A stretch of DNA of 64,000 nucleotides, from positions 12,069 through 76,068 of the IMG/VR virus record IMGVR_UViG_3300038425_000083; one strand, 5' to 3'. The notes beneath the pieces are model-generated. The model did not search any database. It saw only the letters and a list, made by a program, of their open reading frames with translations, and was not told the origin of the DNA. This document shows, one piece after another, positions 413 to 53,680 of the stretch (position 1 is its first letter; the number at the start of each line of letters is the position of its first letter). This DNA is from a virus. Both the position numbers and the translations under genes were made by a program.

Positions 413-784
413 ATGAGACAAGCTGAAATAACTACAATAGACGAAGAGTTCAGAAGTAGACATCCTGGCCCAGTAGTAGATGGCTTAGAGAAGTCTAGCG
501 AATCTGCTAAGAAAGCCTGGCAAACAAGACGTAGAGGATTTAAGGGTATACGAAAAGTTATCCCAAGAGTCGGGAGAACAAAAGCGGAACAAGAGTTCTT
601 GAAGAAAGAGAACAAGGGAATCCAAAAGCTTTATGCCGATGTCTATGGTAAAAAGAAAGCAAGCAAGATCCTTCAACACGTCAAGGAGGCTACTCGGCAA
701 GGTTTGATAAAGCCTGGCATGAAGAAGACTCCGAGCAAATGGAAAGAGTATCTAAAGAAACGTGAGATAGAAGCAGGCAACTAA
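413..784 (+). CDS. basic tagged protein (ITTIDEEF leader; LEK|SSESAKKAWQTRR)
   Basis: AGGAG RBS; one copy of the repeated tag (K codon at 491); Lys/Arg-rich remainder. Confidence 0.75.
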   Translation: MRQAEITTIDEEFRSRHPGPVVDGLEKSSESAKKAWQTRRRGFKGIRKVIPRVGRTKAEQEFLKKENKGIQKLYADVYGKKKASKILQHVKEATRQGLIKPGMKKTPSKWKEYLKKREIEAGN

Positions 785-1596
785 TGAGTTGGTGCGACCT
801 TAGTGGATTGAGATTTGGCAAAGTAACAGTCGAAAACATGGCAGGCTCCACTACGAAGAGTTTGTTATGGAGATGTATATGTGATTGTGGCAGCGAAATT
901 GTAGTAGAGACAAATGCCCTCACTAATACTTTAAGTTGTGGACATTGTAAACCTGGCATAAGAAAGAGAGCAAAGACTAAACCTAATTATAGACATCATT
1001 GCAACATAAACTTTGTAGATAATCCCAACGAGGCAACCGACCTAACAGAAGGGAGACGTGCTGAATATAATCCGAAATACCAGTATGAGGGTCGATGGAA
1101 AGCCGACGTTGAACGTTATGAGAGGAGACATGAAATGATTTGTGAAAGATGCGGATGTGAACTGAAGATGGGTCTTGGTGATTTAACAAGAGGACAAGTT
1201 GTTGAACTTCTCGAGCAGGCCGTTCTGGATAAGAAGATAGATGATATCAAATTGTTCCGGTATGAAGGAAGTCGTGGAGCTTGGCCTTTTACCAAAGAGG
1301 AGGAAGCAATCTTAAGAAGTTATCTGCCTGGCTTCGAAGCCTATGAGTCAGGGGTTAGAAGAGTTATAAGAACAGATTCAGATCAACCCCCAGGCAAGAG
1401 AAAGTTTGTTAGAAAAGTTAGAACCAAAGATCGTAAGATGGAAGAACCTCCTGATCTTGAAGAGTTTGGGAAGAGTCTAAGAAACTTTGGAAGAGTTTCT
1501 GGTATAACAGGACGAGAAGGTCTTGACCTTAATGATGTAACGATTGGAAGAGACGAGTATGACCAAACTCCAAGGGACGATCCGGCAAACTTTTAA
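784..1596 (+). CDS. HNH/AP2-associated Cys-rich N-terminal domain fused to a copy of the scaffold C-terminal domain
   Basis: DLSGLRFGKVTV..WRCICDCG..SCG motif; segment 1183-1323 is 26/47 identical to the scaffold C-terminus; possible internal start ATG1135 after AGGAG. Confidence 0.7.
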   Translation: MSWCDLSGLRFGKVTVENMAGSTTKSLLWRCICDCGSEIVVETNALTNTLSCGHCKPGIRKRAKTKPNYRHHCNINFVDNPNEATDLTEGRRAEYNPKYQYEGRWKADVERYERRHEMICERCGCELKMGLGDLTRGQVVELLEQAVLDKKIDDIKLFRYEGSRGAWPFTKEEEAILRSYLPGFEAYESGVRRVIRTDSDQPPGKRKFVRKVRTKDRKMEEPPDLEEFGKSLRNFGRVSGITGREGLDLNDVTIGRDEYDQTPRDDPANF

Positions 1597-1620
1597 AACA
1601 TAAAAGTAAAGGAGCCTGTT

Positions 1621-1899
1621 ATGTGGAAACATAAAATTGAAGATGACGGTAAGATTTTATTCTGGAAAGATGAAGAGAATGATGGAGGACAAAGTCCATC
1701 GGAACAAAAGATGCAGACGTTTTGGATTTGGGATACAAGAGATCTTGTCGATCTAAGCAAGGACATCGACCAGGCAAAGCTTGACTATTCTAAAAAGTTT
1801 AAACACAATCATTCAAAAGAAGCTCGGAGAGTTATAAGAACAGAAAATGATTCCTCTCCGATGAGAATGAGAAAGTTTGAAGGACTTGTAGTACAATAG
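1621..1899 (+). CDS. hypothetical protein with RRVIRT motif
   Basis: AGGAG RBS; shares RRVIRTxxDxxP..RKF with ORF 784. Confidence 0.65.
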   Translation: MWKHKIEDDGKILFWKDEENDGGQSPSEQKMQTFWIWDTRDLVDLSKDIDQAKLDYSKKFKHNHSKEARRVIRTENDSSPMRMRKFEGLVVQ

Positions 1900-1907
1900 G
1901 AGCTCAC

Positions 1908-2753
1908 ATGATTGTTAAAGAAAAAGGCGGGTGGAGTGTTAAGTCAGAGAAGGGTAAAAACCTTGGGGGCCCATACAAGTCTCGAGCTCAGGCTAAGAAA
2001 CGTCTTGCAGAGGTTGAGAAGTTCAAACACATGAATAAATCAGTATCAAGCTATAAGACACAATCTCCCTGGCCTTGGGAAAAAAGTATACCAGATCAGT
2101 TTTATTACATCAATGAAGGCGGAGCCGATCTTGCAAAGACATCTGAAGGAGCTCGTAAAGCATGGGAGACACGTAGATCGGGTGGAAGTCGTAGGACAGA
2201 ACCTTTCCGATCAGGCGAGCCCAGGTTCACGAAAGAGGAAGAAGAGAAAGCTAAGCAGCCTACATGGGATAGTGTCCAGAAAGAAAAGGATGAATTGATT
2301 GGAATAGCCAGAGCTCATGGGATTGAAGTTGTAGATAGTTCTTATAACACTTTAGGAATCAAAGACCCGGAGAAGAAAGCAGACATATATGAAGGAAATG
2401 TTTCATTAAAGTTTTATCCCACACCGGTCGAAAGAGCAGGACAACCATTTAGTGCCCCTTGGACTAACGATCAGCATAAAGATATGATGGCTAAGTTTCA
2501 GCATATTAGAGATCAGGCAAAAGAGAAAGGGTGGAAAGTTGAGCCTCGAGCATTGCCCAATGTTCTTATAAGAGGCAAGTCAATAGGAAGTGCCCGAGCA
2601 GGAACAAGTCGATGGATGCCTTCATACTATGTGACATATCTTACTAAGCAGGCACTTATGACTGCAGCTCCACAACTGAAACCAAGACGACAGATGCAAC
2701 TTGACAAAACTCTTTATGTTGTCTTGGACTTGAAGAAGTCAAGAGAGGATTAA
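1908..2753 (+). CDS. tagged multi-module protein
   Basis: N-terminal small module (WSVKSEKGKNLGGPYKSRAQAKKRLAEVEKFK), LAK|TSEGARKAWETRRSGGS at 2136, C-terminal YVVLDLKK|S. Confidence 0.75.
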   Translation: MIVKEKGGWSVKSEKGKNLGGPYKSRAQAKKRLAEVEKFKHMNKSVSSYKTQSPWPWEKSIPDQFYYINEGGADLAKTSEGARKAWETRRSGGSRRTEPFRSGEPRFTKEEEEKAKQPTWDSVQKEKDELIGIARAHGIEVVDSSYNTLGIKDPEKKADIYEGNVSLKFYPTPVERAGQPFSAPWTNDQHKDMMAKFQHIRDQAKEKGWKVEPRALPNVLIRGKSIGSARAGTSRWMPSYYVTYLTKQALMTAAPQLKPRRQMQLDKTLYVVLDLKKSRED

Positions 2754-3344: not shown

Positions 3345-6300
3345 ATGGAATACGTCATTATAGAGAAATCAGCTGAAGGTTCTAAACGAGCATGGCAAAC
3401 ACGTAAACATGGCGGTTCTCATAAAGAAGCAGAGAAGCCTAAACCTAAAGGCCCGGAGATAGACGCTCTTTTAACTAAGGAAGATAAGCTAAAAGAACAA
3501 GCTCTAAGAAAAGAAGTCGAAGTTTTTTCTGACGGCGACCTTTCTGCTTATGTCCAAGTCCTGCGGAAAAAGTTACAAACGAAATCCTGGAACGAATTAA
3601 ATGATTATGAGAAAAGATTTTATCCTCTTGTTCTTGATGAGCAAAGCAGGAGAAGACGTAAAGCTCTTGGGGCTATATTTGCTATAGAGATACCAGAGGT
3701 GCGTCTTGAAGATGTCAAGGAAAGAAAATCTCAACCAAGGAAGGTTTTAATGAATTCACTTCATGTAATCATAGAAAAATCAAGTGAAGGTGCTAAGAGA
3801 GCATGGGAAACAAGAAGACATGGTGGAAAGCATCTTGGCCCCGAGAAGCCAAAGTCAGCAAAGAAAGAGTTATCAGAAAGAGTTAGAGAACTTTCAGATG
3901 AACAACTTCAAGCTACTCATGAAAGGCTTGACAAGATACCATATTCCCAGATGAAGCCTGATGAAAGGAGACTATCTCATCTTGTAGCTTATGAACTGAT
4001 AGAAAGAAAGAGATTAAGACCCATTTCTCAAGACCCAATGGGAAGTCTTGCCAGGCAGGCTGCTAAAAAGGAAAGCGATGAACAGAGACTAAGAAGGAAG
4101 GGGCCTATTGAAACCCCTGGATTACCTGAAAGAGAACCTGAAGTTGTTGAAGAATTTAAAGTTGGAGACAAAGTCAAACATCCTACTTATGGAGAAGGAG
4201 TTGTTAGTGAAGTTCGCAAGATGAAAACCGGGACACCAGTTTATTATGTTAAGTATCCAGGGCGTGATTTGGCCTTCGCTCATGGAGACGAAGAGCTTGA
4301 AAAGGTTGAAGACGTAGCTAAGCCCAAAGAAGAAGTAAGCATGGGTACCAAAGTTCAGAAGTTAAAAGATAAGATCGAACAACAGCAAGCCGAACGGTAT
4401 GCGAAAGACTATCCTCATGTTGAACCTCCTAAAGTTACAGTCAAAGAGGGAGGGAAATACATTCGAGTTGACGTTGGAACTTCTGGCAAATACATGGTTG
4501 AGAAGGACACCGGGAACATCTATGGTATCAAAGGCTACGGAGTTATTCATAGAGGTCATTTCTATGGGACTTTGGATACGATAGATGATTTTAACTGGGG
4601 CGACTATGCAGCGTTTAGGACATTGTCTTTGAAAGATAGAGAATTCAAGGCTGAAAAGCCAGCTGAGCCGTCAGGTGTTGTTAGCATGGATACAGTCAAA
4701 GAAGATGTTAAGAAAATGCAAGAGAAGATCAATGCTCCTTGGGTTCATGTCCAGTCTTCAGATTTAGGTGGAGCAAAGAACGTTTCTATAATCATAAAAG
4801 CCTCGATGCAAAAGAAAGAAGAGTGGCATAATAACATACTACAGAACTCTCCCTATACAATGTTTCATTTGCTAACAGGTGGGGTGTTAGAGCAATTTCA
4901 AAGAAGCCCTGATTTGGATAAACTCGGAGCATTTAGAAAGACAAAAGTTAAGAGTGTGGTTGAAGCTATTCAAAAGATCAATAGCTATTTGAATCCACCA
5001 TTACCGCCAAGGAGAAAAATGCAGATCAAGAAGGGACAGATGTTTGTTATCATAGAGAAAGCCAGAAAGATTGGTTCTAAAGATAGTAAGAAGAGAAAGC
5101 GTAGAGGACAGAAAGAAAAAGAATTATATGAATTTTCTCACAAAGCAGCGTATGGACATTTGCCGTCATCTTCAACTCCATTTAAAGATGACTCCATTAG
5201 ATTCAAGAAAGCTGATATCCAGGTTCAACCATTCACAAGGACAGTCAAGGGAAAGTTTCAAAGAGTTCAACAGTTCTTTAGACCTGGCAAGGAAAGCTAT
5301 CCAGGAACAGAGAAGGGAGTTAATGACTTCATAAAGGATCATGTCGGACTTAGCAACTATGGGCATATCGTTGCAGACGAAGCAAAGAAGGAAGTTGATG
5401 TTGACGTTGCTGCGACAAACGCTTTTATGTCTGTTATGGGTCATGTTGTTGATAAAAAGGAGAAGCCGTCCTTAATCGCTAAAATAGGGTCTAAAATCAT
5501 TTCAAGAGGTGAACAGCCTACAATCCTTAGGCAGTTAGTCCAGAAAGATAAAAAAGCCTTCCAGGGGCTTTTAAAAGAACTCTTTAATAGGGTTCATGGG
5601 GATGTTAGAGAATTTAAGATGGAAATGGGCAAGTCCGTTGAAGGAATGCCTGTTGAATCGGTTAGAGCTCTTGCTGTTAGCCAGGCCATGAGAGAACTCA
5701 AAAAATCAAAATCTCCCGAGAAGGAAGAACATTGGAAGTGTAATAAGTGTGGGCATGAATTAGATGCCCCACATGAAGAAATGCTTAAAAGAATGGTGAC
5801 TTGTCCTGAATGTGGAGGAGCAATGGAGGAACTTAAGAAAGCTGGCTCAAGCGATGCTGCTCATAAAGCATGGCTTAAAAGAGAAGCCGAAAGAAGAGCT
5901 CTAAGAACAAGAGAGCGTGAAGGAACTAAGTTAGATGAACTCTCAGGACTTCAAGAAGCTGCAAGGAAAACCCGGGAACGAATATTTGCTCCAGGGAGAA
6001 CAGTTGAAACTCGGGGTAAGCGTCAGCTTACAGGAAAGGTAGTCAGGATAGTTGGAGATGCCCAGGCAAAAGTTCAATGGGAAGGTGGGTTGATAACCAT
6101 TGAGCCACTCATAGATTTAAAGCCAAAAGTTGATTTAGATATAAATCATCATGACCACATAGTTAAGAAGGGAACGTCAGAAGGAGCAAAGAAGGCCTGG
6201 TCACAAATGCAACATCAAGTTGCAAAGATTGCAGGTGTTCAAGAGAAGGTTAGAACTAAACAAAAGAATCAAGAAGAGATAGAACGACAAAAGAAACTTA

Positions 6301-8901: not shown

Positions 8902-9180
8902 ATGGATAATGAAAATGCTCGTGAAGCATGGCTATTGCAGATAGAAAGAACTAAAAATGGTTATATACTTTTAGGGAATGATGGCCTGAGTGTTATTGAA
9001 GAAGATGATCAAGATGAACTTAAAGAACACGAGAAACTACTTTGGGCAGTCATGGAATATTTTGGTTTTCAAGGAAGCAAACATGACAAGCAACGTTTAC
9101 GAGTCATGCGAGAACAACAAGAGATTGGAATAGGAGACCAGACAATTAGGAGGGATAATGAAAGTTCAGGATGTAATTAG
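8902..9180 (+). CDS. hypothetical acidic protein
   Basis: GGAGG RBS before ATG8902. Confidence 0.6.
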   Translation: MDNENAREAWLLQIERTKNGYILLGNDGLSVIEEDDQDELKEHEKLLWAVMEYFGFQGSKHDKQRLRVMREQQEIGIGDQTIRRDNESSGCN

Positions 9181-9598: not shown

Positions 9599-9600
9599 AT

Positions 9601-10402: not shown

Positions 10403-11170
10403 ATGAAAGTTCAAGTTATTAGTTTAGATGAGGAGTTTGAAAAATCAACCGAGTCTGCCAAGAAAGCTTGGAAGAAAAGAAAACATGGGAAAGCATTCCA
10501 GTTCGGAGAAGGACGTGGTTATGTAGGAGGCCCGCCAGAGGGAGATCCATTTCCTCATAAGAGATCGTTAGGCTGGAAGAAATGGATAGAGAGAAATCCG
10601 GACTGGATTAAAGAGCATCCAAAATGGAAACCCCCAAAAGTGACAGGTATAACTTTTAGGAGACCAGGCTCAAAACTAAAGAAAGCCGAAGGACAAGTTG
10701 TTATTCCGGCTCACATGGCAACCGTCCATGGTAAGAAAGTTATGGTTCAGCAATCAATACCTTTCATGGCTCCTGGAAGACACGGAGATTATACCAAGAA
10801 AGTTCACACAACGGAGAGGGAAGAAGGGGGTAAAACTCATATCAAATATCATACAACTGATGTAGTGTCTTTTGATTCCAATGAGATAACCTTAAGAGAT
10901 GGTGGATGGATGACAAGTTCCACAAAGAAGAGAATTAACCAAGCTTCAACAGAGCATGGACTTGGCATTAGCATCTTTCAGCATAAGAATGATTGGTTTG
11001 TTGCATACAAAGGAAAGACTATTCCTTTCAGAGACGAAATGACAATCAATCGTGAAAGAGGAGATACTCATTATGACAAATGGTTTGATATGACAGAGAA
11101 GGAAAAGAAAACTCTGGCAAGTTATGAAAAACGGTATCATCGAGCGGAAGAGATGGCAGGCCGCAAATAG
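10403..11170 (+). CDS. two-unit tagged protein
   Basis: VISLDEEFEK|STESAKKAW (10442) and LKK|AEGQVVIPAHMATVHGKKV (10682); C-terminal YHTTDVV..GGWMTSSTKKRINQ domain; start ATG10403 after GGGAG (ORF track starts 10286). Confidence 0.75.
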   Translation: MKVQVISLDEEFEKSTESAKKAWKKRKHGKAFQFGEGRGYVGGPPEGDPFPHKRSLGWKKWIERNPDWIKEHPKWKPPKVTGITFRRPGSKLKKAEGQVVIPAHMATVHGKKVMVQQSIPFMAPGRHGDYTKKVHTTEREEGGKTHIKYHTTDVVSFDSNEITLRDGGWMTSSTKKRINQASTEHGLGISIFQHKNDWFVAYKGKTIPFRDEMTINRERGDTHYDKWFDMTEKEKKTLASYEKRYHRAEEMAGRK

Positions 11171-11171
11171 C

Positions 11172-14100
11172 ATGGAACAGATACAAGCTGTAAAGAAAAC
11201 AATTTATGGGACTCCTGTTTACTTTGTTAAATCCTCTGAAGGATCAAAGAAGGCATGGGAAACAAGAAGATATGGCGGAAGTCGCAAAGACCTTACTAAG
11301 ATAAAGCAAGATCATGAAGACCTAAAGAACAAATACAAAGACCTTATAGAATGGAGTAGAACAGACTCATGGGAGAGGCCAGAGTTCTCTGGTTCGCCCG
11401 AGACCGTAAAGAAGTTCATAGCAGACGTTCAAACTCATCATACGAAGATGGTCGATGCTTTTGGAAAGAACAAAACGAACATAGGTATCGAGGAGGATTT
11501 AGGAAGAGCAACCAAGAACCCTAATGTTCAAGGATCGTTTGGTAATGCTTTAAGTGCTCTTTATGGGATGGAAGATAAGATAAGATGGCTTAACCGCTAT
11601 CTCCCAAAGGAACAAGAGAAAGGGTGGAAAGGCAAGGAAAGATCAGAGGCAAGCTGGAAGGAGCTCATGTCAAAGTCATCTGAAGGAGCAAAGAAAGCAT
11701 GGCTAACAAGAAAATATGGCGGAAGTCACGCAGCATTAGAAGACAAGAAGTCTAGAGAATCTTTCAAGAAAGAGTTTTCGCTCAGTGATGTTGAAGGCGG
11801 TTCTAAAGATGATGTTCAGAGGCTTCACGAATCTTTAAAAAAGATAAATGAAAAAATACAGATTGATGGGAGAGGTAAACTATCCTTCAGTATTAAAGCC
11901 CCTCTTCAAAAGACTTGGTTCGGAGATTTCGATGAGGGAAATGATACCATAGAGATACATCCGAAACATCTTGAGAAAGTTGAACATGAGTATCTTCATT
12001 TTGTTTTTAAATACAGATTTGGAAATCCTATGAGAATAGGCCCAGATCATTACGATAAGTTTGGAAGTAAAAGATTTAGTATTCTTGACCAAAAAGAAAT
12101 ACCCGATTATGAATCGTTTAAAAAGGTAAAGTCAAAAGGATCATACGAGGATTATCATAAATTTGCAAGGGCGTTCGGTCGAAAATTATTTAAAAAGATA
12201 ACTCCTGAAGGTTTAGAAGATTCATTTGATGCATTTATTAAAAAGGTTGCAGATAATAAATCTTTAGATGGGGGGAAGAAAAAAGCGTTTACAGAACTTC
12301 TTCAAATATATAGGAACTTTTATACGAAACCTGGTATCTTAAAAAAGATGCAAGATTTGGTAGATCTCCCTGTTTATGCATTAGAACCTACAGAACTCTT
12401 TGCGAGAGCTGGGGAACTTTACATGCATGGAACAACTTGGTCTTTGGATGTTATCGAAGCTGATCTTACAGGAGAACAGGATTTAAAAGAGGACAAAGCC
12501 AAGAACGTAGCTTCAACTAAATTATTTCAAAGTCAGATTAAAGGGTGGGGAAACAAATATCTTAAAACCGGAGTTATGAGTAAATCTCTTTTTGTTATCT
12601 TTGAGAAATCTTCGGAGGGGGCAAAGAAAGCTTGGTTGACAAGGAAGTTCGGAGGAAGTCACAAAGGAGAAGAGAAGCCAAGTCTTAAGGGTCTTTCTTC
12701 TAAAGCTATTTTAGAGATGAGTCCAGAGGATCGTGAGAAATATCTCAAAGACATGGATTCATGGAATGAAAAGTTTGGCATTCCTAAAAAGATTGAGGTA
12801 TCCGAAGCCAACATTAACAGATTTGTCGATAAACCAGATGAGGCTATAAGAGAGTATAACAGCATCCAGCAGAAGTATGAGATAAAAAAGAAAACAAGTG
12901 TTAAGAAAACAAAGAAGTCTAAATCTAAACCTAAACCATTTAAGATGCAACTGGTCATTCCTCATGAGGAGACTGAAAGGAGAATTCATGAACATCTTCA
13001 ACAAGCGAAAAGAGAATCGTCAACGACACGTTACTTGGAAGGACGTACTCACGATGTGGACATATGGACAAAAGAGGATTTATTGGCTGCAGTGCCTAAG
13101 TCTCCAAAAGGTTCTCAATTCTATGCCAAAACAAATGTCCAAAACATCAAGCGGGTCTTAGAGTTTAAAAAACCAAATGAAGTAGGTGGGATTCATACAA
13201 TCGTTGTTCTCGAGAATGGTAAACCAGTTTATCAATACATTGATACCACAACAGAGAAGAACTCAAGGAAGAAATTTGTACGATCAAAGAATGTCGAAAA
13301 GAATATTGGGGAGATACGAGCCTTCTATAAGAAAGGAATGGGCAAAACTGGATATGACAAGCAGATGGGTACTATCCTTTCATTGATTGACCTGTATACT
13401 ATTCGGGTAGGAAGCAAAGCAGATGTTGATGAAGGTGTGAGGAAAGTTGAAGACTTAAAGAATAGAGCTCTTATTAAAGCGCCAAAAGATATAGCAAGAG
13501 TACCATATGGGCTACCATATGATCGAAACACGGTTTATTACGTTTTTATTAAAGATGGGCAAAGGCTTATCGGCCCATCCGAGAGAATGGATGAGATCAG
13601 CGATGAGATCAACGAAGCCAGGAAGATAAAAGATAAAGCTAAAGTAGAAACTCTTAAGCAAGAGAAGAAAGACCTTGTTAAACCAATGCCCGAGGATTGG
13701 AAGGAAGTTTATAAGTTAGGACACTTTGGAGCAACCCAGTTAGAGGCCAGGCATGTCAAGATCGAGCCCGAGTATAAAGGAGTTGGAACTAATTTTGGAA
13801 GTGTTGTTCACCTTGATTTCATTGGTAAATCTGGGGTTCATTGGGAGTTCCCAGTTAATGATACTGGAATTGCAGAAGCTTTAGCCGATCTGTCCAAAGG
13901 TAAGTCCGGGCGTGATCCTATATTCCCGGATGTTAAATATCAAAAGGTTACGGGTTTGCTCAAAGATAATTGGAAGTGTCTTGCAAAAGATTTTAGAACT
14001 TATCATGCAACAAAAACATTTGCTGAAGCAACTAAAGATTTTCCAGTCCCAAAGACAGAGCAGGAACTCAAATCAATAGAAGGTCAGATATTGGAAAGAG

Positions 14101-14636
14101 TTTCTGGTTTGCTCTGGAACACGAAGGGAATGGCTAAGAAGTCTTATATTGACCCTGCTGTCTATGGAGCGTGGAGAGCAGGCTTATTAAAAGTAATGAT
14201 GGAAGCTGCCCCGATTAAGAAGTCATTGCTTTTTAATGTGATCTTAGAGAAATCAGTTGAAGGCACAAAGAAAGCATGGCTAACAAGAAAGTATGGAGGT
14301 TCCCACAGAGAGCAGAAAAGCTACTATACAACTTCTGGTGCTATGACGATGAAGGAGTTTATAGAAACTGAAGTTGAAGATAGAGGGAACTATCCTTTAT
14401 CTGAGGTTAGAGGCTGGATTAAAAAGTATGGTATCAAAAGAGATCAGCAAATTATGTGGGTATCCCCCAAGAAGTGGAGAGCTTATAGCTATACTCTTCC
14501 GGCAGAGGAAATGGATTCTGCAAGAGATGTAGATGAATCTAAAATGGATGTTACCGAAGTCAAAGGTAAAGAAGGTTTTATAATTCCAGAGTCAGACGAT
14601 GGAAGCGAAGGTTTTTTATTTGTTTTCAAGAATTAA
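11172..14636 (+). CDS. four-unit tagged polyprotein: unknown, zincin (LPD1/MPTase-like), DNA topoisomerase IB, unknown
   Basis: tags at 11229, 11673, 12606, 14250; HEYLH..EPTELFARA; TopIB motifs TIRVG, GATQLEARHV, FIGKSG, KDFRT, LWNT..AKKSYIDP. Confidence 0.85.
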   Translation: MEQIQAVKKTIYGTPVYFVKSSEGSKKAWETRRYGGSRKDLTKIKQDHEDLKNKYKDLIEWSRTDSWERPEFSGSPETVKKFIADVQTHHTKMVDAFGKNKTNIGIEEDLGRATKNPNVQGSFGNALSALYGMEDKIRWLNRYLPKEQEKGWKGKERSEASWKELMSKSSEGAKKAWLTRKYGGSHAALEDKKSRESFKKEFSLSDVEGGSKDDVQRLHESLKKINEKIQIDGRGKLSFSIKAPLQKTWFGDFDEGNDTIEIHPKHLEKVEHEYLHFVFKYRFGNPMRIGPDHYDKFGSKRFSILDQKEIPDYESFKKVKSKGSYEDYHKFARAFGRKLFKKITPEGLEDSFDAFIKKVADNKSLDGGKKKAFTELLQIYRNFYTKPGILKKMQDLVDLPVYALEPTELFARAGELYMHGTTWSLDVIEADLTGEQDLKEDKAKNVASTKLFQSQIKGWGNKYLKTGVMSKSLFVIFEKSSEGAKKAWLTRKFGGSHKGEEKPSLKGLSSKAILEMSPEDREKYLKDMDSWNEKFGIPKKIEVSEANINRFVDKPDEAIREYNSIQQKYEIKKKTSVKKTKKSKSKPKPFKMQLVIPHEETERRIHEHLQQAKRESSTTRYLEGRTHDVDIWTKEDLLAAVPKSPKGSQFYAKTNVQNIKRVLEFKKPNEVGGIHTIVVLENGKPVYQYIDTTTEKNSRKKFVRSKNVEKNIGEIRAFYKKGMGKTGYDKQMGTILSLIDLYTIRVGSKADVDEGVRKVEDLKNRALIKAPKDIARVPYGLPYDRNTVYYVFIKDGQRLIGPSERMDEISDEINEARKIKDKAKVETLKQEKKDLVKPMPEDWKEVYKLGHFGATQLEARHVKIEPEYKGVGTNFGSVVHLDFIGKSGVHWEFPVNDTGIAEALADLSKGKSGRDPIFPDVKYQKVTGLLKDNWKCLAKDFRTYHATKTFAEATKDFPVPKTEQELKSIEGQILERVSGLLWNTKGMAKKSYIDPAVYGAWRAGLLKVMMEAAPIKKSLLFNVILEKSVEGTKKAWLTRKYGGSHREQKSYYTTSGAMTMKEFIETEVEDRGNYPLSEVRGWIKKYGIKRDQQIMWVSPKKWRAYSYTLPAEEMDSARDVDESKMDVTEVKGKEGFIIPESDDGSEGFLFVFKN

Positions 14637-14850: not shown

Positions 14851-15399
14851 GTGTATTACGTCATCTTAGAGAAATCGAGTGAGTCAGCAAAGAAAGCGTG
14901 GGAGACCAGGCGAAGAGGTCTTGGCAAACAAAAGCCTACAAAGAAACAATCTGAGAAGAAATCTGAAGCTGAGTCGCTGGCGAGAGCTAAAAGAATTATA
15001 GCAAAATACCCCACATGGGAATCTTATCATGAATCCCAGAAGGGCACGAAGTATAAAGATTTCATCGGTAGAACTCAAGTCGTAAGAGATGCTGAACACG
15101 ACAAACGCAATTCAAGATATATGTGGGAAGCAGCAAAGCAATGGGTTGATGCAGGTGGAAGCCCGGCAAAGAAATCAGCTATCAAATGGGATAAAACTCT
15201 TTCTGTAGCCCCGGGAGGAAAAGGTTATTTCTATACAGCAAACACTCCGAGAGGAAGAGTTTGGGTTGTATGGGATAGGGTCAACAAGAAGTGGAAAGTA
15301 GATCATGATTCTGGTAAGCCAAGTCATGAATCTATAAAACACGAACGTTTCAAAACTGCCGAAGAGGGATTGAAGGCCGTGGCTAAGTGGCTTGAATAA
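14851..15399 (+). CDS. tagged protein (YYVILEK|SSESAKKAWETRR)
   Basis: GTG start after GAGGA; tag at 14872. Confidence 0.75.
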   Translation: MYYVILEKSSESAKKAWETRRRGLGKQKPTKKQSEKKSEAESLARAKRIIAKYPTWESYHESQKGTKYKDFIGRTQVVRDAEHDKRNSRYMWEAAKQWVDAGGSPAKKSAIKWDKTLSVAPGGKGYFYTANTPRGRVWVVWDRVNKKWKVDHDSGKPSHESIKHERFKTAEEGLKAVAKWLE

Positions 15400-20788: not shown

Positions 20789-21832
20789 ATGGAGCTTAGA
20801 GTCTTTTCAGTAGACGAATTACTTAAAGCCAGAAGAGCAATGCAAATAACAACAGCATCTGAGGCAGCAAAGAAAGCTTGGGAAACACGGAAGTTCGGCG
20901 GATCGCATAAAACAGAACTTCCGGCAAAAGGCCAAGTTCTGAAACCAAGAGAAGAAGTAAAACATGAAATCCCAGAGGCTTCTAAAAAGGATTATTCTAA
21001 ATTTAGAAACAACCTTAGAGAGTATTTCACAACACAGAATGAATACAGAGATCTTCAAGGTCAGATTGAAGGCAAGAAGGCTGAGCTCGAAGATCAGATG
21101 AAAGTCATAAGGCCTTACTTGGCTAAGATGCAGAACTTGGAAACAAAGGAGAATAAGTTCCGAGCTAAGTTCGAAGACGATGGATTCAAATATGAATTTC
21201 TTCAATTTACTTTGACAAGAACTCCTTATAAAGAACTCTATACAGAGGCCTTTAGTAAATTGAACGACCAGGCTAAGGCAGAGATGACAGCTATTCAGAA
21301 AAAGCTTGGGCAGACTTATGCTCAAGAGAAATTTGAAAGAGAATCACTTACAAAGGCTGAAAGCATTGTTGATCATTTAAAGAAATTGTGTGCTATCAAA
21401 GAGAAGGGCTTAGAACTCTTGAAGAAGATTGCAACTCCGGGACTTAGGAAGGCTATTATGCTTAAATTAGCCCCGGAAGTCTTTGAAGAATATAAGAGAG
21501 GAAACAGATTAGTTGTTGTAAGTCCAATGGTCGGTGAAGCCGACTTAGAAAAAGATGAGGAGGATGACATGGAAATAATAACATTGGATGAAGCATTGAT
21601 GGAGAAGTCCAAAGAAAAGCAACCTTTTCAGATTGATGGTAAAATCAACAAAGAACTACTTGCTCAGATCGAAGAGGATAAGGGCAAGATAAAAGCACAT
21701 TATAGAGGGGATTTTGTAGTTAAAGAGCCTGGCGTTCCTGATCACAAAGGAAGACCATCGGCTATTATCGAAATGACTTCCGGAAAGTGGAAGGGCGGAA
21801 CTTTTGAAATTTTTCTAAACGGAATTGAATAA
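20789..21832 (+). CDS. tagged coiled-coil protein
   Basis: VFSVDELLK|A..SEAAKKAWETRKFGGSH; internal IITLDEALMEK|S. Confidence 0.75.
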   Translation: MELRVFSVDELLKARRAMQITTASEAAKKAWETRKFGGSHKTELPAKGQVLKPREEVKHEIPEASKKDYSKFRNNLREYFTTQNEYRDLQGQIEGKKAELEDQMKVIRPYLAKMQNLETKENKFRAKFEDDGFKYEFLQFTLTRTPYKELYTEAFSKLNDQAKAEMTAIQKKLGQTYAQEKFERESLTKAESIVDHLKKLCAIKEKGLELLKKIATPGLRKAIMLKLAPEVFEEYKRGNRLVVVSPMVGEADLEKDEEDDMEIITLDEALMEKSKEKQPFQIDGKINKELLAQIEEDKGKIKAHYRGDFVVKEPGVPDHKGRPSAIIEMTSGKWKGGTFEIFLNGIE

Positions 21833-24451: not shown

Positions 24452-25120
24452 ATGGCGATAAAGGGAATAGTAAGAACTCTGGACGAGATCAAAAAGAGTG
24501 ACAAGAAACCTAAGTTAACAAAAGATGAAGCCTTACAATGGCTAAGAGTCAGAATATCACGTAGGGTCAAAGATGAACTTCGCTATCCGGACAAAGATTC
24601 CCCGCCTACAATAGATAATGTAGCCCAAAAGGTCTACGAGAACATTGTTGACGATTGGACTTACAACTCGGAGATTTTGGCAGCTTGTCGTGCAGTTGGA
24701 TTTAACCAAGCATATGTTTCGTCTATCGTAACTGGATTCTTTGATGGCGAAGGAAAACCACTTCCTATAAAGGGTAGTAGCGGGCCTGAAGTTGCGAAGA
24801 CGGCTGGCGAACCAGCTGTAGAACTTGGAAGGTCGCTTTCAAATCTTACGACTATAGATGATGAGTTTGATGAATTGGCTAAGACATCCGAAGGAGCCAA
24901 GAAGGCATGGTTAACAAGAAGAGGTGGTTCTTCTCATAAAAAAGCTGGCAAGTCTGCTAAATGGAGCAAACTTGATAGTATCTTTAAGAAGCATCATGGA
25001 GGTAGAGGTGCTCTTGTTAAAAAAGTTAAAGCAGCTGGTATGACAGAGAAAGACCTTGATAGGTATCTCAATCTTACAGATACTAAAGCTGCAAGGGCTG
25101 AGTTTGCGAGAGGGAAATAA
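24452..25120 (+). CDS. two-unit tagged protein
   Basis: GGAGG RBS; IVRTLDEIKK|S and LTTIDDEFDELAK|TSEGAKKAWLTRR (24881). Confidence 0.75.
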   Translation: MAIKGIVRTLDEIKKSDKKPKLTKDEALQWLRVRISRRVKDELRYPDKDSPPTIDNVAQKVYENIVDDWTYNSEILAACRAVGFNQAYVSSIVTGFFDGEGKPLPIKGSSGPEVAKTAGEPAVELGRSLSNLTTIDDEFDELAKTSEGAKKAWLTRRGGSSHKKAGKSAKWSKLDSIFKKHHGGRGALVKKVKAAGMTEKDLDRYLNLTDTKAARAEFARGK

Positions 25121-28476: not shown

Positions 28477-29946
28477 ATGACTCTACTTTTTCATGTAATC
28501 GATCTTCAAAAATCTTCAGAGGGGGCCAAGAAGGCCTGGGAAACAAGAAGACATGGAGGTTCCCATCAGAAGATTAAGTTAACAAAGCAGCAAGCTTGGG
28601 ATTTGAGAGAACAAGAACGCAAAGCTCAAATGAATCTTCCTCTTAAAGAGAGGGCAAAGTTAAAACAAAGATATGATGAACTAAAACAAGATGCGGAATT
28701 ATCTTCCGAAGAATACGCAAAGAAGTATTCAAAGGAATACGGAGAAAAGTATTTAAAAGAATATCCGTATGCACTTGAATATCGGCAAAAGATGGCAAAA
28801 GAAATTGTTTCTAAGCCATTTGAAGAACAACTTAAACTCTTCTCTGAGAAAAAGAAGCCTGAAGACATGACCTGGACAGAATACTTTGAACACAGAAAAG
28901 CTACTCCAAAGGGTCAAATGCCAGGGCAGTTCTATGCCGGAGATGTGAACCGAATACGAAAAGATTACAAGAAACTTCAGGAGAAGAAACAACTTAAACT
29001 CTTCCCAGAGAAGAAGCCCGAGAAATCTTTAAAACAAAAACAGATAGATGCTATGACTAAGGAAGAACGAAAGAAATATATGGCTCCGTGGGGAGGACGA
29101 ATAGGAAAGCCGAAGATCGAGAGTAGCAAAGCTCACTTTACACCAAAAGAAGTTAGTTCTGCAATCGATAAATTGAAGACTGCTACTATTGAAGATGTTC
29201 AGGGTGGAAAAATCCCTCTTGCTTTTTACGGGGGAAATGAACTTGGCCCAGAGATTGTTGCCCAGTTTAGTAATGGCAAGATTCGTTTGTTCGATGGTTT
29301 TTTTAAGATGCCTGCGGAAGATCGCCCCTCATTGCTTTACCATGAATTTGGGCATGAGGTTACACGTATAGCATTTGGTTATCATTCAGATGAGACTAAC
29401 TCCATGTTAAAACCATTCCAGTTGGGTACAATGAGATATGACAATTTTGCAGGAGCCAGTTATCGTCCAGATGAAATGATAGCGGATATCTACTCAGAGG
29501 CGATGACCGTCAAGGAACCGATATGGGAGAGCGGTGGGAAGTATGAGCGAATGACAGATTACATTCTTAATATTGCTCATAGTGCAGGGTTACCCACTCC
29601 AAAATGGTTTACTTCTAAGTCCGTTCCTGAAAAGGTTTACCCTGCAGGTTATAAACCAGAATCAATAGATGAATGGATGGATTGGCACGAGAAGCATAAA
29701 GATGAGTTAGAACGGAAGCAAGAGAAGCGAGATGTCTTATTTAAGAAGAGTTTTTATCCTGGAACATTAGCGATGACCGCTGGTAAAGATTTACCACGTC
29801 CTCGGAAGATAAAGGATGTAGAGAGGTTGATAAGAAAAGTCGAAAAGAATGAAAAGGACCGAAAGAAAATGTTAACGGCTGATATATTACCAGAAAATCC
29901 TTTGAAGCAAACAACAGGAAGCGGCTCTCAAGCAGTTCTTGGGTAA
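28477..29946 (+). CDS. tagged protein with zincin metallopeptidase domain
   Basis: FHVIDLQK|SSEGAKKAWETRRHGGSH; LLYHEFGHE..PDEMIADIY; internal repeat QLKLF(S/P)EKKP. Confidence 0.8.
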   Translation: MTLLFHVIDLQKSSEGAKKAWETRRHGGSHQKIKLTKQQAWDLREQERKAQMNLPLKERAKLKQRYDELKQDAELSSEEYAKKYSKEYGEKYLKEYPYALEYRQKMAKEIVSKPFEEQLKLFSEKKKPEDMTWTEYFEHRKATPKGQMPGQFYAGDVNRIRKDYKKLQEKKQLKLFPEKKPEKSLKQKQIDAMTKEERKKYMAPWGGRIGKPKIESSKAHFTPKEVSSAIDKLKTATIEDVQGGKIPLAFYGGNELGPEIVAQFSNGKIRLFDGFFKMPAEDRPSLLYHEFGHEVTRIAFGYHSDETNSMLKPFQLGTMRYDNFAGASYRPDEMIADIYSEAMTVKEPIWESGGKYERMTDYILNIAHSAGLPTPKWFTSKSVPEKVYPAGYKPESIDEWMDWHEKHKDELERKQEKRDVLFKKSFYPGTLAMTAGKDLPRPRKIKDVERLIRKVEKNEKDRKKMLTADILPENPLKQTTGSGSQAVLG

Positions 29947-37771: not shown

Positions 37772-37919
37772 TTATGTCATTTTGAAAAAGGCTGAGAAGA
37801 AGTTACCAGATCATAACTCTATGCAATTTCACAAGGAACTTTTTGAAGTAGAAGATGATCTGATGGATTACTTAGACACATTGGAGAAAGAACCAAAGCA
37901 TGAGGCTCGTAATTCTTAA
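37752..37919 (+). CDS. small tagged protein (YVILKK|A), not in ORF track
   Basis: MAKLLTNYVILKKAEKKLPDHNSMQFHKELFEVEDDLMDYLDTLEKEPKHEARNS. Confidence 0.6.
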   Translation: MAKLLTNYVILKKAEKKLPDHNSMQFHKELFEVEDDLMDYLDTLEKEPKHEARNS

Positions 37920-39732
37920 ATCAAGCGAAAGTGCACGTAGGGCATGGGAAACAAGAAGATATGGAGGTTCTCATACAACCCTATCGACCGAACGCTCTGA
38001 ATATTACAAAGAAAGAGAAAAGCTTGACAAAGAGGTTTTTCTTAATGAGCTTCCAAAGTTTAGGGAAGAACTTAACATAAAAAAGTTTTATACAAAATTT
38101 CCTAAAGTGTCTTCTCAGATCGAAGAGAAGTTTCGAACTATTACTGAAAGTTACAGAAGCGGTGGTTTAGATGACTTGGGTGCTAAACCAGAAGAAGTAA
38201 GAGAGAAGATGCAAGTTGTTAAAGATGAAATAAAATCGTGGGGCGACAAACTTCAATTTAATGGAAGAGGTAGACTGTCTATTAAAGTCGGCACCATACC
38301 AAAAAGAGGAAGACATAAAACCTATGGTATGTACTACCCTGGGATTCAAGTTTTAGAAGTGGATCAAAGATACAAAAATTCTATAGCTCATGAGTATGCT
38401 CATTTTATTTTTGATGACAATGGATGGGAAGATAGCTACAAAGATAGTTTAGTTCATGGGAATTTCGATGAGGCTTATGAATTTGGGTTTACGAATTTTT
38501 TAGAGAAATTTTCTCAAGATATGGAATTTGTTCCCTCTGACATAAGTTCTGCAGGCACAGCTGCTACAATTAAAAATCAAGGGAAAGCACTTATAGAACT
38601 TTTCGCTCAGCTAAAAGATTTTTATAAACTTCCAGATGTTATGGAAAAATTTAAGAAAAGTCAAGACCCTCCTATCATTTGGGCGTCTACTGAGGCTTTA
38701 TCGGATAAGCAAAAGCTTACTCGAGAACGGATTGAACGGACGTTCGCCAGAGGAGTTTATAAAAGAGTTCAGAATCGTATGAAGTATCTATTTCGTCCAA
38801 CCGAAATATTTGCAAGAGCTGTTGGGTCATATGTATCAGAGGATTTTATTTCTAACCCGGTTGAAAAAGATGATAGATACAAGGCAATTGTAAAAGCCTG
38901 GGGTGATAAGTATCTGAAGACTGGTATTGTGAAGAGTTATGTGATTCTTGAAAAAGCCCAGATACAGATTAAGCCTTCTTTTAGGCATACGGCTTCTGGT
39001 AAGATAGTTCCTGTCAAAGGATTTACAGTTGAAAGGGAAACTTTTGAGCATGCCGTTCTTGCCGATGAATTTTTCAAATCACTTAAGGAGATTGAAGGAT
39101 CAGATTGGCAATTTGAACCCGGCGAAGTTTTTGATATGGGTGATAAAATAAATGTTGAAGTTAGATTGTGGGACCGAAGTAAGAATATCACAGAACTTGA
39201 ACCTTATAGAGCAAAGGGAACTTCTTTAACACGCTATAAAAAGATGTCTGGATACATTGGTCGTTTTGAATTGAATTTTCTTAAGAATGGGAAAGATGTG
39301 TATCTATCATCTTTATTTTTAAAAGACGAGTGGCAAGGTAAAGGTGTTGGCAATGATTTAATGAAGCGAGCTATAGACTTTGGAATTTCTAAAGGCTTCA
39401 AAAGTTTTGAACTCTTTGCAAATGGGGATGTCGGAACTTATGCGTGGGCTATCCAAGGATGGGATTTTGTTAAGAAAACAGAGAAACAAGATTTGCTTGG
39501 AGACTTTTGTAAATGGCTAAAGAAAAAATATAATGTAGAGAAAAATCCTCTGGATTTTCCTCATGCTTGGAATATAGCAGCGTTTAGAATAGGAGATGAG
39601 AAAGTCGGAAAAAAATTTATGACTGGAGATGGTCATAATGATTTCTGGGAAGGCGCTCTTAACGTTGGTAGCAAAGGCTACAAATTGTTTAAGGAATATC
39701 ATAGATTAAGGTTACTAAGGAAAATGAGTTAG
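37900..39732 (+). CDS. two-unit tagged polyprotein: zincin (LPD1/MPTase-like) and GNAT acetyltransferase
   Basis: LVILK|SSESARRAWETRRYGGSH; AHEYAH..PTEIFARA..WGDKYLKTGIVK|SYVILEK|A; QGKGVG acetyl-CoA motif. Confidence 0.85.
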   Translation: MRLVILKSSESARRAWETRRYGGSHTTLSTERSEYYKEREKLDKEVFLNELPKFREELNIKKFYTKFPKVSSQIEEKFRTITESYRSGGLDDLGAKPEEVREKMQVVKDEIKSWGDKLQFNGRGRLSIKVGTIPKRGRHKTYGMYYPGIQVLEVDQRYKNSIAHEYAHFIFDDNGWEDSYKDSLVHGNFDEAYEFGFTNFLEKFSQDMEFVPSDISSAGTAATIKNQGKALIELFAQLKDFYKLPDVMEKFKKSQDPPIIWASTEALSDKQKLTRERIERTFARGVYKRVQNRMKYLFRPTEIFARAVGSYVSEDFISNPVEKDDRYKAIVKAWGDKYLKTGIVKSYVILEKAQIQIKPSFRHTASGKIVPVKGFTVERETFEHAVLADEFFKSLKEIEGSDWQFEPGEVFDMGDKINVEVRLWDRSKNITELEPYRAKGTSLTRYKKMSGYIGRFELNFLKNGKDVYLSSLFLKDEWQGKGVGNDLMKRAIDFGISKGFKSFELFANGDVGTYAWAIQGWDFVKKTEKQDLLGDFCKWLKKKYNVEKNPLDFPHAWNIAAFRIGDEKVGKKFMTGDGHNDFWEGALNVGSKGYKLFKEYHRLRLLRKMS

Positions 39733-40754: not shown

Positions 40755-40765
40755 GGAGGAATGTT

Positions 40766-51731: not shown

Positions 51732-51763
51732 AAGCCAGGGGTTGTCTTGATCCTTGGCTTTTT
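51732..51763 (+). terminator. putative intrinsic terminator
   Basis: AAGCCAGGGG...TCCTTGGCTT stem (with G-U pairs) followed by a T-tract. Confidence 0.55.
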
Positions 51764-51816
51764 CTTCAAGGGACACATAAGCACATCATTATATAAATTA
51801 AAGTATAGGCAAATGT

Positions 51817-52122
51817 ATGTCAGTTGCTTTAGAGATAATCCGAAGGACAATTCAATCTGATCTGGATAGATTTAAAAAGGCAATCCAAGAAAAAGAATTA
51901 GAACATAAGAAACATCATGTCCATGATACGATAGATGATGTCATGAAAAGAAACTTGGAAATGCAGGGCTATCCAGTAGACGATGTCATATCTCAAGATG
52001 AGGCTAAGTTCCAGTTAGATTATGATGCTCTTGAGAAGACGGAAGTGCCAAAGACTGAGTCTGGTGAACAACCCAAATCGGGAGCTGAAGTCTATGAAAA
52101 GTTCTTAGACTCAATGAAATAA
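51817..52122 (+). CDS. hypothetical head-module protein
   Basis: directly upstream of the protease; contains ALEK|T. Confidence 0.6.
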   Translation: MSVALEIIRRTIQSDLDRFKKAIQEKELEHKKHHVHDTIDDVMKRNLEMQGYPVDDVISQDEAKFQLDYDALEKTEVPKTESGEQPKSGAEVYEKFLDSMK

Positions 52123-52132
52123 AGGGAATTTT

Positions 52133-53680
52133 ATGGAAAAAGGCGGATGCGGAGCGATAGAGAGGGACTTTAGTTTTTGGATGCCTCTTGAAGTAGTTAA
52201 GGGGCAGAAGGGCGAAATGAGAATTGGAGGGATAGCTTCCGATGAAGAGTCCCATGATCTCCAAGGTGAAAAAGTTTTTGTCGATGGTTTAGATACTTCA
52301 TATTTGCTTCAAAGAGGTGCTTTTAATTGGGATCATCTAAAAGGCCCAGAAGATATACTTGGCGAGATTGATACTGTTCAAAAGCAAGAAAAGAAGCTTT
52401 ATGTTGAAGGTTTTTTATATCCCAAAGTTAAGAAGGCCATTGATGTATTCGATTTGATGCAATCTCTTAAAGAGTCTGGTAGTAATAGGAAGTTAGGGCT
52501 CTCCTTGGAAGGTAAAGTTAAAGAAAGAGATGAAAAAGATGCTAAGGTCATAAAAAAGGCCTGGATTAAGAACGTTGCCATAACATACAACCCAATTAAT
52601 CAAGGTGCCTGGGTTGATATGATTAAATCGTTGGGAAACTTTACTTTTGATAGTTGTGATAAAGACTGTTCCCGTTGTCCATTATGTGAAGCCAAAAAAG
52701 AAGTTAAATTGGAGCCGGTTAAGAAGGCAACAGCAACGCCTCCTTCTTTTATAGTTCAGGACGGTATCAAATACTATCCAAAAGATTTTGGTGAGTTAAA
52801 GAAAGCTGGCGAAGGTGGAACAAGTGGTTCCGGAGGAGCTGCTCCTGCACCGCCACAAAGTGGTGGTCTTGCTGCTGGACATGATAACCCGGCATCGTCC
52901 GGAGGGATTAGTGGTTCGGCTCTTAGGAGACAATCCTTAGATAAGAAAAAGAAAAAGACGACTTACGATGAAGAGCATGTAGGTCAGAAGGTTGAACCCG
53001 AGAAGTCCGAGACAGACAAGAAGAAAAAGAAAAAGATGACTAAGTCTGAAGTCTTTGAGTTTATTAAGTCTGAGGGAAATTCGGAGGATAGAGCTAATCT
53101 TCTTACTGATTTAGTATTTGCAATGATTGAAGTTGCACCGATCTTAGCAAAATCCAGCGAAGGAGCCAAGAAAGCTTGGATAACCAGACGTAAAGGTTTG
53201 ATTTCTCTTGCTCAGCAAAAGAAAAAGAAGAAAGACCCAAGAGATACCCCTGAATTTTGGGAAGAACGATACGGAAAGAAGAAAAAGGGTGCTGATGTTA
53301 GAACAACTGGAAAGGGAGTAACTCCAAGTCCTATTTTAAGTGTTAAAGAAAAGGAAGATTGGAAGAGGCATTCAAAGATGCCTAAGAAAGTACAGAAGGA
53401 AGCACCTAAAGAACTTGCTCCGACAGGGACAGCCAAACTTGTTGCTCATGAAATTCATAGAATAACTTCCATGTCTGATAAGGCCTTACTTAATCGAGCT
53501 ACCAAGATTACCGATCCTAATAAAATGAAGAACTTTTATCTTGCTGCAAAGTTGAAAGGAAAAGGCGATTTAGCCGGAGCAATAATTACTGCCGGTGGGA
53601 GAATTGGTATTAACCCGCATGAATTTGGTACTAATGCCAAAGAAACTACTAAAGAATTCCGAAGACAACTGTCGGCGTAG
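52133..53680 (+). CDS. prohead (capsid maturation) protease with long C-terminal extension
   Basis: DLQGE..GLD..GAFNWDH..LYVEGFLY..LGLSLEG..NVAITYNPIN; position before scaffold and MCP. Confidence 0.88.
   Translation: MEKGGCGAIERDFSFWMPLEVVKGQKGEMRIGGIASDEESHDLQGEKVFVDGLDTSYLLQRGAFNWDHLKGPEDILGEIDTVQKQEKKLYVEGFLYPKVKKAIDVFDLMQSLKESGSNRKLGLSLEGKVKERDEKDAKVIKKAWIKNVAITYNPINQGAWVDMIKSLGNFTFDSCDKDCSRCPLCEAKKEVKLEPVKKATATPPSFIVQDGIKYYPKDFGELKKAGEGGTSGSGGAAPAPPQSGGLAAGHDNPASSGGISGSALRRQSLDKKKKKTTYDEEHVGQKVEPEKSETDKKKKKKMTKSEVFEFIKSEGNSEDRANLLTDLVFAMIEVAPILAKSSEGAKKAWITRRKGLISLAQQKKKKKDPRDTPEFWEERYGKKKKGADVRTTGKGVTPSPILSVKEKEDWKRHSKMPKKVQKEAPKELAPTGTAKLVAHEIHRITSMSDKALLNRATKITDPNKMKNFYLAAKLKGKGDLAGAIITAGGRIGINPHEFGTNAKETTKEFRRQLSA

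Follow-up and report, generated by a model that had tools for sequence, protein, structure and literature searches.

A repeated peptide around the head genes of a metagenomic phage

The DNA studied here, hereafter the window, is a stretch of 64,000 nucleotides corresponding to bases 12069-76068 of a 76-kb linear IMG/VR virus record, approximately 65% complete; nearly all genes of the window are on the + strand. Since proteins of the same phage are also present on a 179-kb contig, the phage is considered to be large. Its head module comprises a portal protein, a MuF polyvalent protein, a head maturation (prohead) protease, a scaffold and a major capsid protein, and around this module a peptide of about 19 residues, K-SSEGAKKAWETRRxGGSH (the KAW tag), recurs in frame as 16 strong copies and one degenerate copy in 11 + strand open reading frames (ORFs, named by their first position; Table 1). 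The best-supported statement concerns architecture, namely that the KAW tag is a widespread, apparently undescribed header of head-associated cargo modules, located directly behind a lineage-specific site of protease type.

A hidden Markov model (HMM) was built from the 16 copies and run over the six frames of the whole 76-kb record, where only these copies were recovered (46-61 bits, all on the + strand and in the coding frame), followed by the relic at 5838 with 6.7 bits; the scores of the 16 copies are circular, these being the training set, and the informative part is the gap to the background. No tag was found in the 12 kb located 5' of the window. The original prediction for this DNA had counted 17 copies in 11 otherwise unrelated ORFs. 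Translation of all 17 positions retained 15 as full copies, whereas 6168 is a half tag (offset by one residue, with the first half TSEGAKKAW kept and the TRRxGG half gone) and 5838 a degenerate relic. The copy reported with an offset at 20825 has its core nine codons later, at 20852, with T in the position of K, and the 11 ORFs were all verified.

Recognisable domains among the tagged ORFs comprised a type IB topoisomerase core, GNAT, a Kyano_Gp96-like protein and the protease, and no PHROGs family was common to them. That these ORFs are otherwise unrelated is nearly right: the sole similarity among them, with tags masked, joins residues 228-485 of ORF 11124 to residues 101-344 of ORF 37900 (22% identity, E = 5e-9). 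This common module, which stands behind a KAW tag in both proteins, carries an HExxH motif (HEYLHF and HEYAHF, respectively) and is zincin-like by eye; a HEFGHE motif is present in ORF 28456. ORF 28456 has an ortholog in which the middle module is swapped; overall identity is 38%, yet leader and tag agree at 26 of 28 residues.

Table 1. KAW tags, head genes and related elements (positions in the window, except in the last row, which refers to another tagged virus record, G003).
Feature	Positions	Strand	Remarks
KAW tag	491..547	+	ORF 413-784, after GLEK; 50.6 bits
KAW tag	2136..2192	+	ORF 1908-2753, after DLAK; 50.4 bits
KAW tag	3366..3422	+	N-terminus of 1007-aa ORF 3345-6368, after leader MEYVIIEK; 54.6 bits
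KAW tag	3777..3833	+	Second copy in ORF 3345-6368, after HVIIEK; 61.1 bits
Degenerate tag relic SSDAAHKAWLKRE	5838..5894	+	ORF 3345-6368; 6.7 bits only
Half tag KKGTSEGAKKAW	6168..6227	+	ORF 3345-6368; second half lost
KAW tag	10442..10498	+	ORF 10286-11170, Kyano_Gp96-like protein
KAW tag 1/4	11229..11285	+	1170-aa ORF 11124-14636
KAW tag 2/4	11673..11729	+	ORF 11124-14636; start of HExxH module (zincin-like by eye)
KAW tag 3/4	12606..12662	+	ORF 11124-14636, after FVIFEK; start of module with type IB topoisomerase core
KAW tag 4/4	14250..14306	+	ORF 11124-14636, after NVILEK
KAW tag	14872..14928	+	N-terminus of ORF 14851-15399, after leader MYYVILEK
KAW tag	20852..20908	+	ORF 20789-21832; sole copy without preceding K
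KAW tag	24881..24937	+	Close to C-terminus of ORF 24302-25120
KAW tag	28510..28566	+	Close to N-terminus of ORF 28456-29946
KAW tag	37918..37974	+	N-terminus of ORF 37900-39732 (HExxH zincin-like by eye + GNAT), after leader MRLVILK
KAW tag	53150..53206	+	Inside prohead protease ORF 52133-53680, between catalytic part and conserved C-terminal domain
Portal protein	25945-27615	+	Head-module context
MuF polyvalent protein	43015-49707	+	2230 aa; MuF, GHKL ATPase, PolyA_pol/HD domains; without KAW tag
Head maturation protease	52133-53680	+	phrog_1028, E 4.5e-39
Scaffold	54212-54907	+	Head module
Major capsid protein	55005-56417	+	46% identity at best to Herelleviridae Bacillus phage capsid proteins
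Scaffold C-terminus copy in ORF 784	1174-1326		53% identity, E 5e-13
Scaffold C-terminus copy in ORF 2908	2941-3081		48% identity, E 3e-7
ORFs in G003:C1:65001-85000	12645-14204, 10356-12641, 9132-10352	-	Hydrophobic-x-N before several tags

Conservation as a peptide and predicted fold

Many copies within one genome could in principle stem from a DNA repeat, and the tag would then be a nucleotide-level repeat or a recombination scar devoid of function as a peptide. Nevertheless, the mean pairwise identity of the copies at codon positions 1, 2 and 3 was 0.64, 0.66 and 0.45, respectively, identical residues were encoded by different codons in 51% of cases, serine alternated between TCN and AGY, and no copy was found on the - strand or out of frame; moreover, the peptide is kept across genomes of 39-67% guanine plus cytosine (GC). 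The picture of a DNA repeat family, with conservation highest at the nucleotide level and copies in any frame or strand, was not observed, and codon statistics together with the frame and strand scan led us to exclude this reading, whose probability we consider practically nil. Protein-level conservation with synonymous codon variation, as originally predicted, is thus borne out, and the nucleotide-level repeat that the prediction had itself named as contrary evidence was looked for and not seen.

In AlphaFold2, an alignment of 16 tag rows gave a helix with a predicted local distance difference test (pLDDT) score of 84 over the core, which supports the predicted helix, although for a 32-mer this is a weak test. 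For ORF 14851, modelled as a single sequence, a helix was obtained at residues 11-20, with a low mean pLDDT of 50. We propose that the tag is built as a short helix, with a TSEG start, an AKK-A/G-W-ETRR body and a GG end, followed by a flexible linker. On a helical wheel drawn by hand, W would share one face with A, K and both R, while the opposite face would carry the E/K pairs and the small residues G and A/G at positions i and i+4. A complex prediction between the catalytic part of the protease and a junction-plus-tag alignment scored 0.00, with controls not run, and speaks neither for nor against a cut at the junction.

Two other readings of the peptide were considered and rejected: a twin-arginine (Tat) signal at TRR, behind which there is no hydrophobic stretch, and self-cleavage between G and T of G-T-S-E-G, the tag being a lone helix without a catalytic fold and the window variant lacking the G.

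Occurrence in other phages

The original prediction had treated the tag within this phage, and here its scope proved too narrow, since the tag is widespread in unrelated phages and belongs to a set of interchangeable headers. Among 1.84 billion representative proteins, a profile search (E<=1e-3) retrieved 83, leaving 78 foreign proteins with 188 tags after removal of the window's own. Two to five copies were present in 63 of the 78, with a median spacing of 173 residues, and the first tag was at most 40 residues from the start in 39. The foreign consensus reads phi-x-[K/A/N/D/E]-x-G-TSEGAKK(G/A)WETRR-GG, where phi is hydrophobic, followed by a Gly/Ala/Glu/Pro-rich stretch; the motif has also been listed as NGTSEGALKGWETRR behind hydrophobic-x-N.

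Pfam analysis of 62 foreign proteins identified ADPrib_exo_Tox, Zeta_toxin, Acb1, Topoisom_I, ART-PolyVal, NUDIX, LigT and Phage_Mu_F, with one or two members each, and the majority of the 62 had no Pfam domain. This domain set is the repertoire of polyvalent proteins (PMC5512222). The cluster records of ten foreign proteins contained only the description "hypothetical protein" and derived from metagenome assemblies, JGI/IMG or metagenome-assembled genomes (MAGs).

Five IMG/VR records with the tag were probed, among them G002, G003 and G004. The tagged genomes have 51-67% GC, compared with 39% in the window phage. In G004 the gene order is terminase, portal, MuF and a tagged 847-aa protein, and in G003 a pair of tagged proteins is encoded immediately upstream of head protease and capsid protein.

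A tblastn search with one window tag and a consensus-type tag against 50,697 deposited phage genomes gave no match at E<=10; short queries being weak, absence from cultured phages is weakly supported. No Pfam family matched the tag profile, neither the profile nor a tandem-tag protein retrieved anything meaningful from the PDB sequences, and the tag part retrieved nothing above chance from the ESM Atlas. A search of IMG/VR for related loci, based on the protease, found no relative, and a full-text literature search for the motif strings returned no relevant paper.

A probable lineage-specific site followed by a common header

In the window, K occupies position -1 in 15 of the 16 strong copies, a hydrophobic residue is at -3 in nearly all, and in nine cases the tag is preceded by the strand (Y/F/H)VI(L/I)EK. 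The predicted location of the tag directly after a putative cut is therefore upheld as far as position goes, the cut itself being putative. The same strand forms an 8-residue N-terminal leader, M-x-Y-V-I-L-E-K, in ORFs 3345, 14851, 37238 and 37900 and in small ORFs at 23447 and 41717, and it is also found internally without a tag. Junction strands that lack the tag are seen, for example, at 5046, 33230, 37250 and 38941. In total, strands of the VI(L/I)EK[SA] type number 16 on the + strand of the window and one on the - strand, against 4.0 in shuffles. Furthermore, the capsid protein has near its N-terminus a putative site without a tag, AELNK/ALAAGYD (the slash marks the cut). Since the strand occurs without the tag and the capsid protein has this K/A site, two separable elements are present in the window, the KAW tag being one and a hydrophobic strand with a terminal K the other. 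The protease encoded by ORF 52133-53680 is the presumed cutter of junctions of the form hydrophobic-x-K followed by S or A.

Leaders of the YVILEK type without a KAW tag were seen in ORFs 23447-23662, 41717-41881, 37238-37771 and 33191-34513. These leader-only ORFs, among them a very basic protein of 71 aa and a zinc-ribbon protein of 54 aa, are candidates for small packaged proteins.

Among the foreign tags, the residue three places before TSEG was 0.70 identical within a protein and 0.19 identical between proteins (K 62, A 33, N 22, L 14, D 12), and the residue two places further upstream was L, V or I in 64%. By comparison, the tag core had an identity of 0.65 between foreign proteins. The downstream flank was 0.146 identical within and 0.103 between proteins; since it shows no such likeness, internal duplication is not the cause of the agreement within proteins. 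Taken together, a variable upstream residue followed by a universal core looks like a lineage-specific protease site and then a common header. In the window variant the x-G spacer is missing and K directly abuts the core. The sequence pattern fits a prohead protease site of the type hydrophobic-x-P1 (P1 being the residue before the cut), with P1 protein-specific across phages.

The same arrangement was found in the unrelated phage G003, where an identical phi-x-N precedes the KAW tags, a Cys-His tag (QPCGDSHI..G..C), a third repeated peptide and the leader MFYKLFN, which opens both the protease and a cargo protein. The Cys-His peptide of this record has five copies, one of them in the protease, and the third peptide is the repeat GEF(K/V)LFKKGQNSLGD.

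Interchangeable headers and other address-like elements

The KAW tag was found at the same place in only one of 43 protease homologues, the closest (67% identity). In homologues of 50-56% identity, its slot before the same conserved C-terminal domain is occupied by a basic, hairpin-like AGYxRTRKGxLERV motif. In the MuF polyvalent protein, headers of basic hairpin type follow K/A at approximately residues 210-235, 938-960 and 1226-1245, which are module borders; these hairpin-like motifs resemble the AGYxRTRKGxLERV of the protease homologues. It is accordingly part of the best-supported, architectural statement that the KAW tag is interchangeable with other basic headers.

Other elements of the same phage have the appearance of addresses. 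The C-terminal ~50 residues of the scaffold (aa 179-229; 54746-54898) are copied into two otherwise unrelated proteins (Table 1), a second possible route for procapsid loading. In addition, residues 246-283 of the protease (52868-52981) are a 38-residue copy of residues 28-65 of the capsid protein (55086-55199; 60% identity, E = 1.6e-9). The copied segment starts two residues past the putative ELNK/A site and is kept among the protease homologues listed. With this segment the protease may mimic the capsid protein or co-assemble with it. As the same phage has other address-like elements, the tag is free for another job, and addressing to the capsid is more plausibly achieved by the hydrophobic leader and the scaffold C-terminus copies than by the tag.

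A sister form on DNA enzymes

A sister form of the tag, SEAAKKAWETRR, was detected in the tails of a clamp-loader-like ATPase, of a GIY-YIG nuclease and of an ORF that is nuclease-like by eye; small basic proteins contain it as tandem arrays. It stands at the N-terminus of an AAA+/DNA_pol3_delta2-like (clamp-loader-like) protein from a Bathyarchaeia MAG and at the N-terminus of an ORF from a deltaproteobacterial MAG that is PD-(D/E)xK nuclease-like by eye and has no Pfam match. Its tandem arrays make up the bulk of several small, very basic proteins, one of them from Nitrososphaerales MAGs. Since there is nothing to cut in those settings, the sister peptide has a function of its own.

The C-terminal region of GIY-YIG homing endonucleases binds DNA. 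In one such enzyme, encoded by a 465-kb phage contig, the C-terminal end reads NKKAWETRRRGA, right behind a NUMOD3 motif in the C-terminal region. Among 23 homologues of this enzyme, the KAW tail is present in two, itself and a 62% relative, the others having NUMOD3 or other modules at this place. The Pfam model NUMOD3 (PF07460) spans residues 131-150 of the protein and leaves the KAW tail, at approximately residues 167-180, outside; furthermore, no tagged ORF matched NUMOD3 at E<=0.01. The tag resembles NUMOD3 in being short, basic and helix-forming, and in one endonuclease its KAW form lies right behind this motif, whereas the Pfam model neither covers the tag nor matches any tagged ORF. The likeness to nuclease tails that had been predicted is real for at least the GIY-YIG enzyme. 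It is not supported for the tail of the HNH-like protein of the window named in the prediction, KAGKKSWVLRRK, which has the pattern KK[AS]WxxRR only and was unscored by the tag HMM.

Comparison with known systems

Detailed knowledge of how non-structural proteins are selected, loaded, released and injected by phages is limited to a few models, notably the capsid targeting sequence (CTS) of T4. The T4 CTS is carried by the internal proteins IPI-III and Alt and is cut by the prohead protease gp21 (PMC9026906). Likenesses to the present case include a short peptide at the N-terminus of proteins that have little else in common and whose genes accompany head genes, a protease site of the type hydrophobic-x-P1, putative in our case, and a cargo that, here too, would travel with the DNA; in length and place, the counterpart of the CTS is the window leader M-x-Y-V-I-L-E-K. 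However, a CTS lies before its site and is removed, whereas the KAW tag lies behind phi-x-K in 15 of 16 copies, so that the leader, and not the tag, holds the CTS position. Moreover, P1 is K in the window and E in T4, and the KAW tag recurs inside polyproteins and is common to unrelated phages, while the CTS is restricted to T4-like phages. Many proteins of the head interior in giant phages (SPN3US, phiKZ-like) are reportedly cleaved at a short motif by the prohead protease and then ejected into the cell; studies of these ejection proteins are said to provide cleavage logos, with no conserved post-cleavage header common to unrelated phages.

Phages and conjugative elements encode polyvalent proteins, MuF-linked ones included, which have been described previously (Iyer et al., 2017; PMC5512222), and their processing by embedded zincin-like peptidases was proposed in the same study (PMC5512222). 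In PMC5512222 the word "linker" is absent, and we found no description of a repeated junction peptide. Our proteins share with them long chains of swappable effectors (TopoIB, ADP-ribosyltransferase (ART), Zeta, NUDIX, GNAT, CCA/HD, zincins) beside portal or MuF genes, for which injection and processing are expected. Several unrelated domains in one polypeptide were found in three ORFs of the window: ORF 11124 joins TopoIB to a module that is zincin-like by eye, ORF 37900 joins GNAT to such a module, and ORF 43015 is the third case. Association with head-morphogenesis genes was found in the window, G004 and G003. What departs from the polyvalent picture is a conserved header that marks module borders and is also present in single-domain proteins and in the head protease.

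In brief, protease-processed, capsid-loaded cargo and polyvalent proteins are already known kinds, and the header is apparently undescribed. To the polyvalent-protein picture it adds defined module borders and a candidate processing logic. It would also provide a sequence rule for finding injected effectors in metagenomes, including anti-defence enzymes such as Acb1, ADP-ribosyltransferases and topoisomerase IB, as well as an experimental handle on the fate of cargo after cleavage and, possibly, a portable tag for protein delivery by phages.

Proposed role of the tag and alternatives

The tag is probably a portable label, carried by proteins that are separated by cleavage inside the capsid and travel with the DNA. 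In the course of events that we propose, precursors would enter the procapsid by means of the leader, acting like the T4 capsid-targeting sequence, or, for other cargo, by scaffold C-terminus copies in its place. The prohead protease, whose own chain contains this site and tag as well, would cut behind K, and each released module, judging from the position of the tag, would keep it as a new N-terminus. The basic, Trp-bearing face of the helix would then bind a polyanion, most likely the packaged DNA, and modules would stay with the genome and leave the capsid with it. Binding of a polyanion, most likely packaged DNA, by the tag of each released module is our tentative preference, which we rate somewhat below an even chance. 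It is favoured because the tag would remain on the product; because the partner must be common to unrelated phages; because the sister form is found on DNA enzymes and in histone-like arrays; because the alternative headers (basic hairpin, Cys-His knuckle) belong to kinds that often bind nucleic acids; and because the phage has other address-like elements, namely the leader, the scaffold C-terminus copies and the capsid segment in the protease. A broader proposal, doubtful at present and worth stating, is that unrelated phages share a vocabulary of mini-headers (KAW helix, basic beta-hairpin, Cys-His knuckle), each a possible nucleic-acid binder behind a lineage-specific site, that is, a code of "cut, then ride the DNA". 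If this were true, any domain could be loaded, released in the capsid and co-injected, and the KAW tag would constitute a universal, transplantable delivery handle.

Several points weigh against binding to packaged DNA. The tag keeps two conserved acidic residues, both E, and its small residues (G/A) at i and i+4 could equally serve protein-protein packing. The protease is tagged as well, though it need not travel with the DNA. The tails of the DNA enzymes represent a slightly different subclass (SEAAKK, without G-T-S-E-G), comprise only a handful of cases and include a nuclease-like ORF that lacks Pfam support; likewise, no Pfam DNA-binding family matches the tag, NUMOD3 covering a neighbouring motif only. 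In G002, a PHROGs scan of the neighbours of the tagged genes gave no head-gene match. Several tags in one precursor are also compatible with a signal for cutting or with avidity in targeting to the procapsid. Cleavage, packaging and DNA binding of the tagged proteins are inferences, as are the tethering to the genome and the ejection role suggested in the original prediction.

Among the alternatives, the tag could be an address to the procapsid that binds an assembly component before DNA entry, such as the acidic stretch of the scaffold, the inner wall of the capsid or the portal, with several copies providing avidity. The tagged genes are all located around the head module and include that of the protease, a protein that has to enter the procapsid; a long acidic run is present in the scaffold and could bind a basic helix, and T4 loads its internal proteins by a short peptide (PMC9026906). 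However, a tag behind the putative cut would stay on the product, whereas the T4 signal is removed and its cargo thereby freed. The core is also nearly identical in phages of 39-67% GC with unrelated scaffolds and capsid proteins, which argues for a universal partner, the same motif is found on enzymes without head context, and the phage has its leader and scaffold C-terminus copies as other address-like elements; we regard a procapsid address as rather unlikely. A purely local role is unlikely as well. Here the tag would form the side of the protease site that follows the cut (P') and, as a self-capped and exposed helix, would either dock on the protease or present the scissile bond, its role ending with cleavage. 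This would account for tags that always adjoin a protein-specific P1 position behind a hydrophobic residue, that mark module borders one domain apart and that include the internal site of the protease itself. Yet the same phage has junction strands without a tag (5046, 33230, 37250 and 38941), as well as the putative site of the capsid protein, and tags are found in tandem arrays and directly behind Met, which leaves no piece to remove. Nor is it easy to reconcile a universal P' element with a P1 that differs from phage to phage.

Finally, the tag could act in the host after delivery, sending the effector to a target such as the nucleoid, RNA, ribosome or membrane, or protecting it from degradation. 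A universal partner would fit the conservation of the tag across phages of very different hosts, and the cargo domains are host-directed (ART, Zeta toxin, Acb1, TopoIB and GNAT), but a fragment of the protease is also tagged, and direct reading of the tag revealed no match to a known localisation or degradation signal and no hydrophobic stretch of Tat type behind TRR. A host-side role is the least probable of these three, and we consider it distinctly improbable.

Other genes of the region

Further genes of the window deserve mention. A papain-family cysteine protease (Peptidase_C1, E = 2.2e-10) is encoded at 40724-41587, just upstream of the MuF gene, and is an alternative candidate for cargo processing. 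The 392-aa protein of 21845-23023, located between tagged genes, combines a C-terminal domain of phrog_4273 with an N-terminal half that is very long, acidic and rich in lysine, and is possibly an internal head protein too. Located 3' of the capsid gene, 59124-61163 encodes a protein of 679 aa with a heptosyltransferase domain (glycosyltransferase family 9, E = 4.9e-32), and a radical-SAM-like ORF lies within the cargo region at 31146-32243; both are unusual passengers for a head and tail region.

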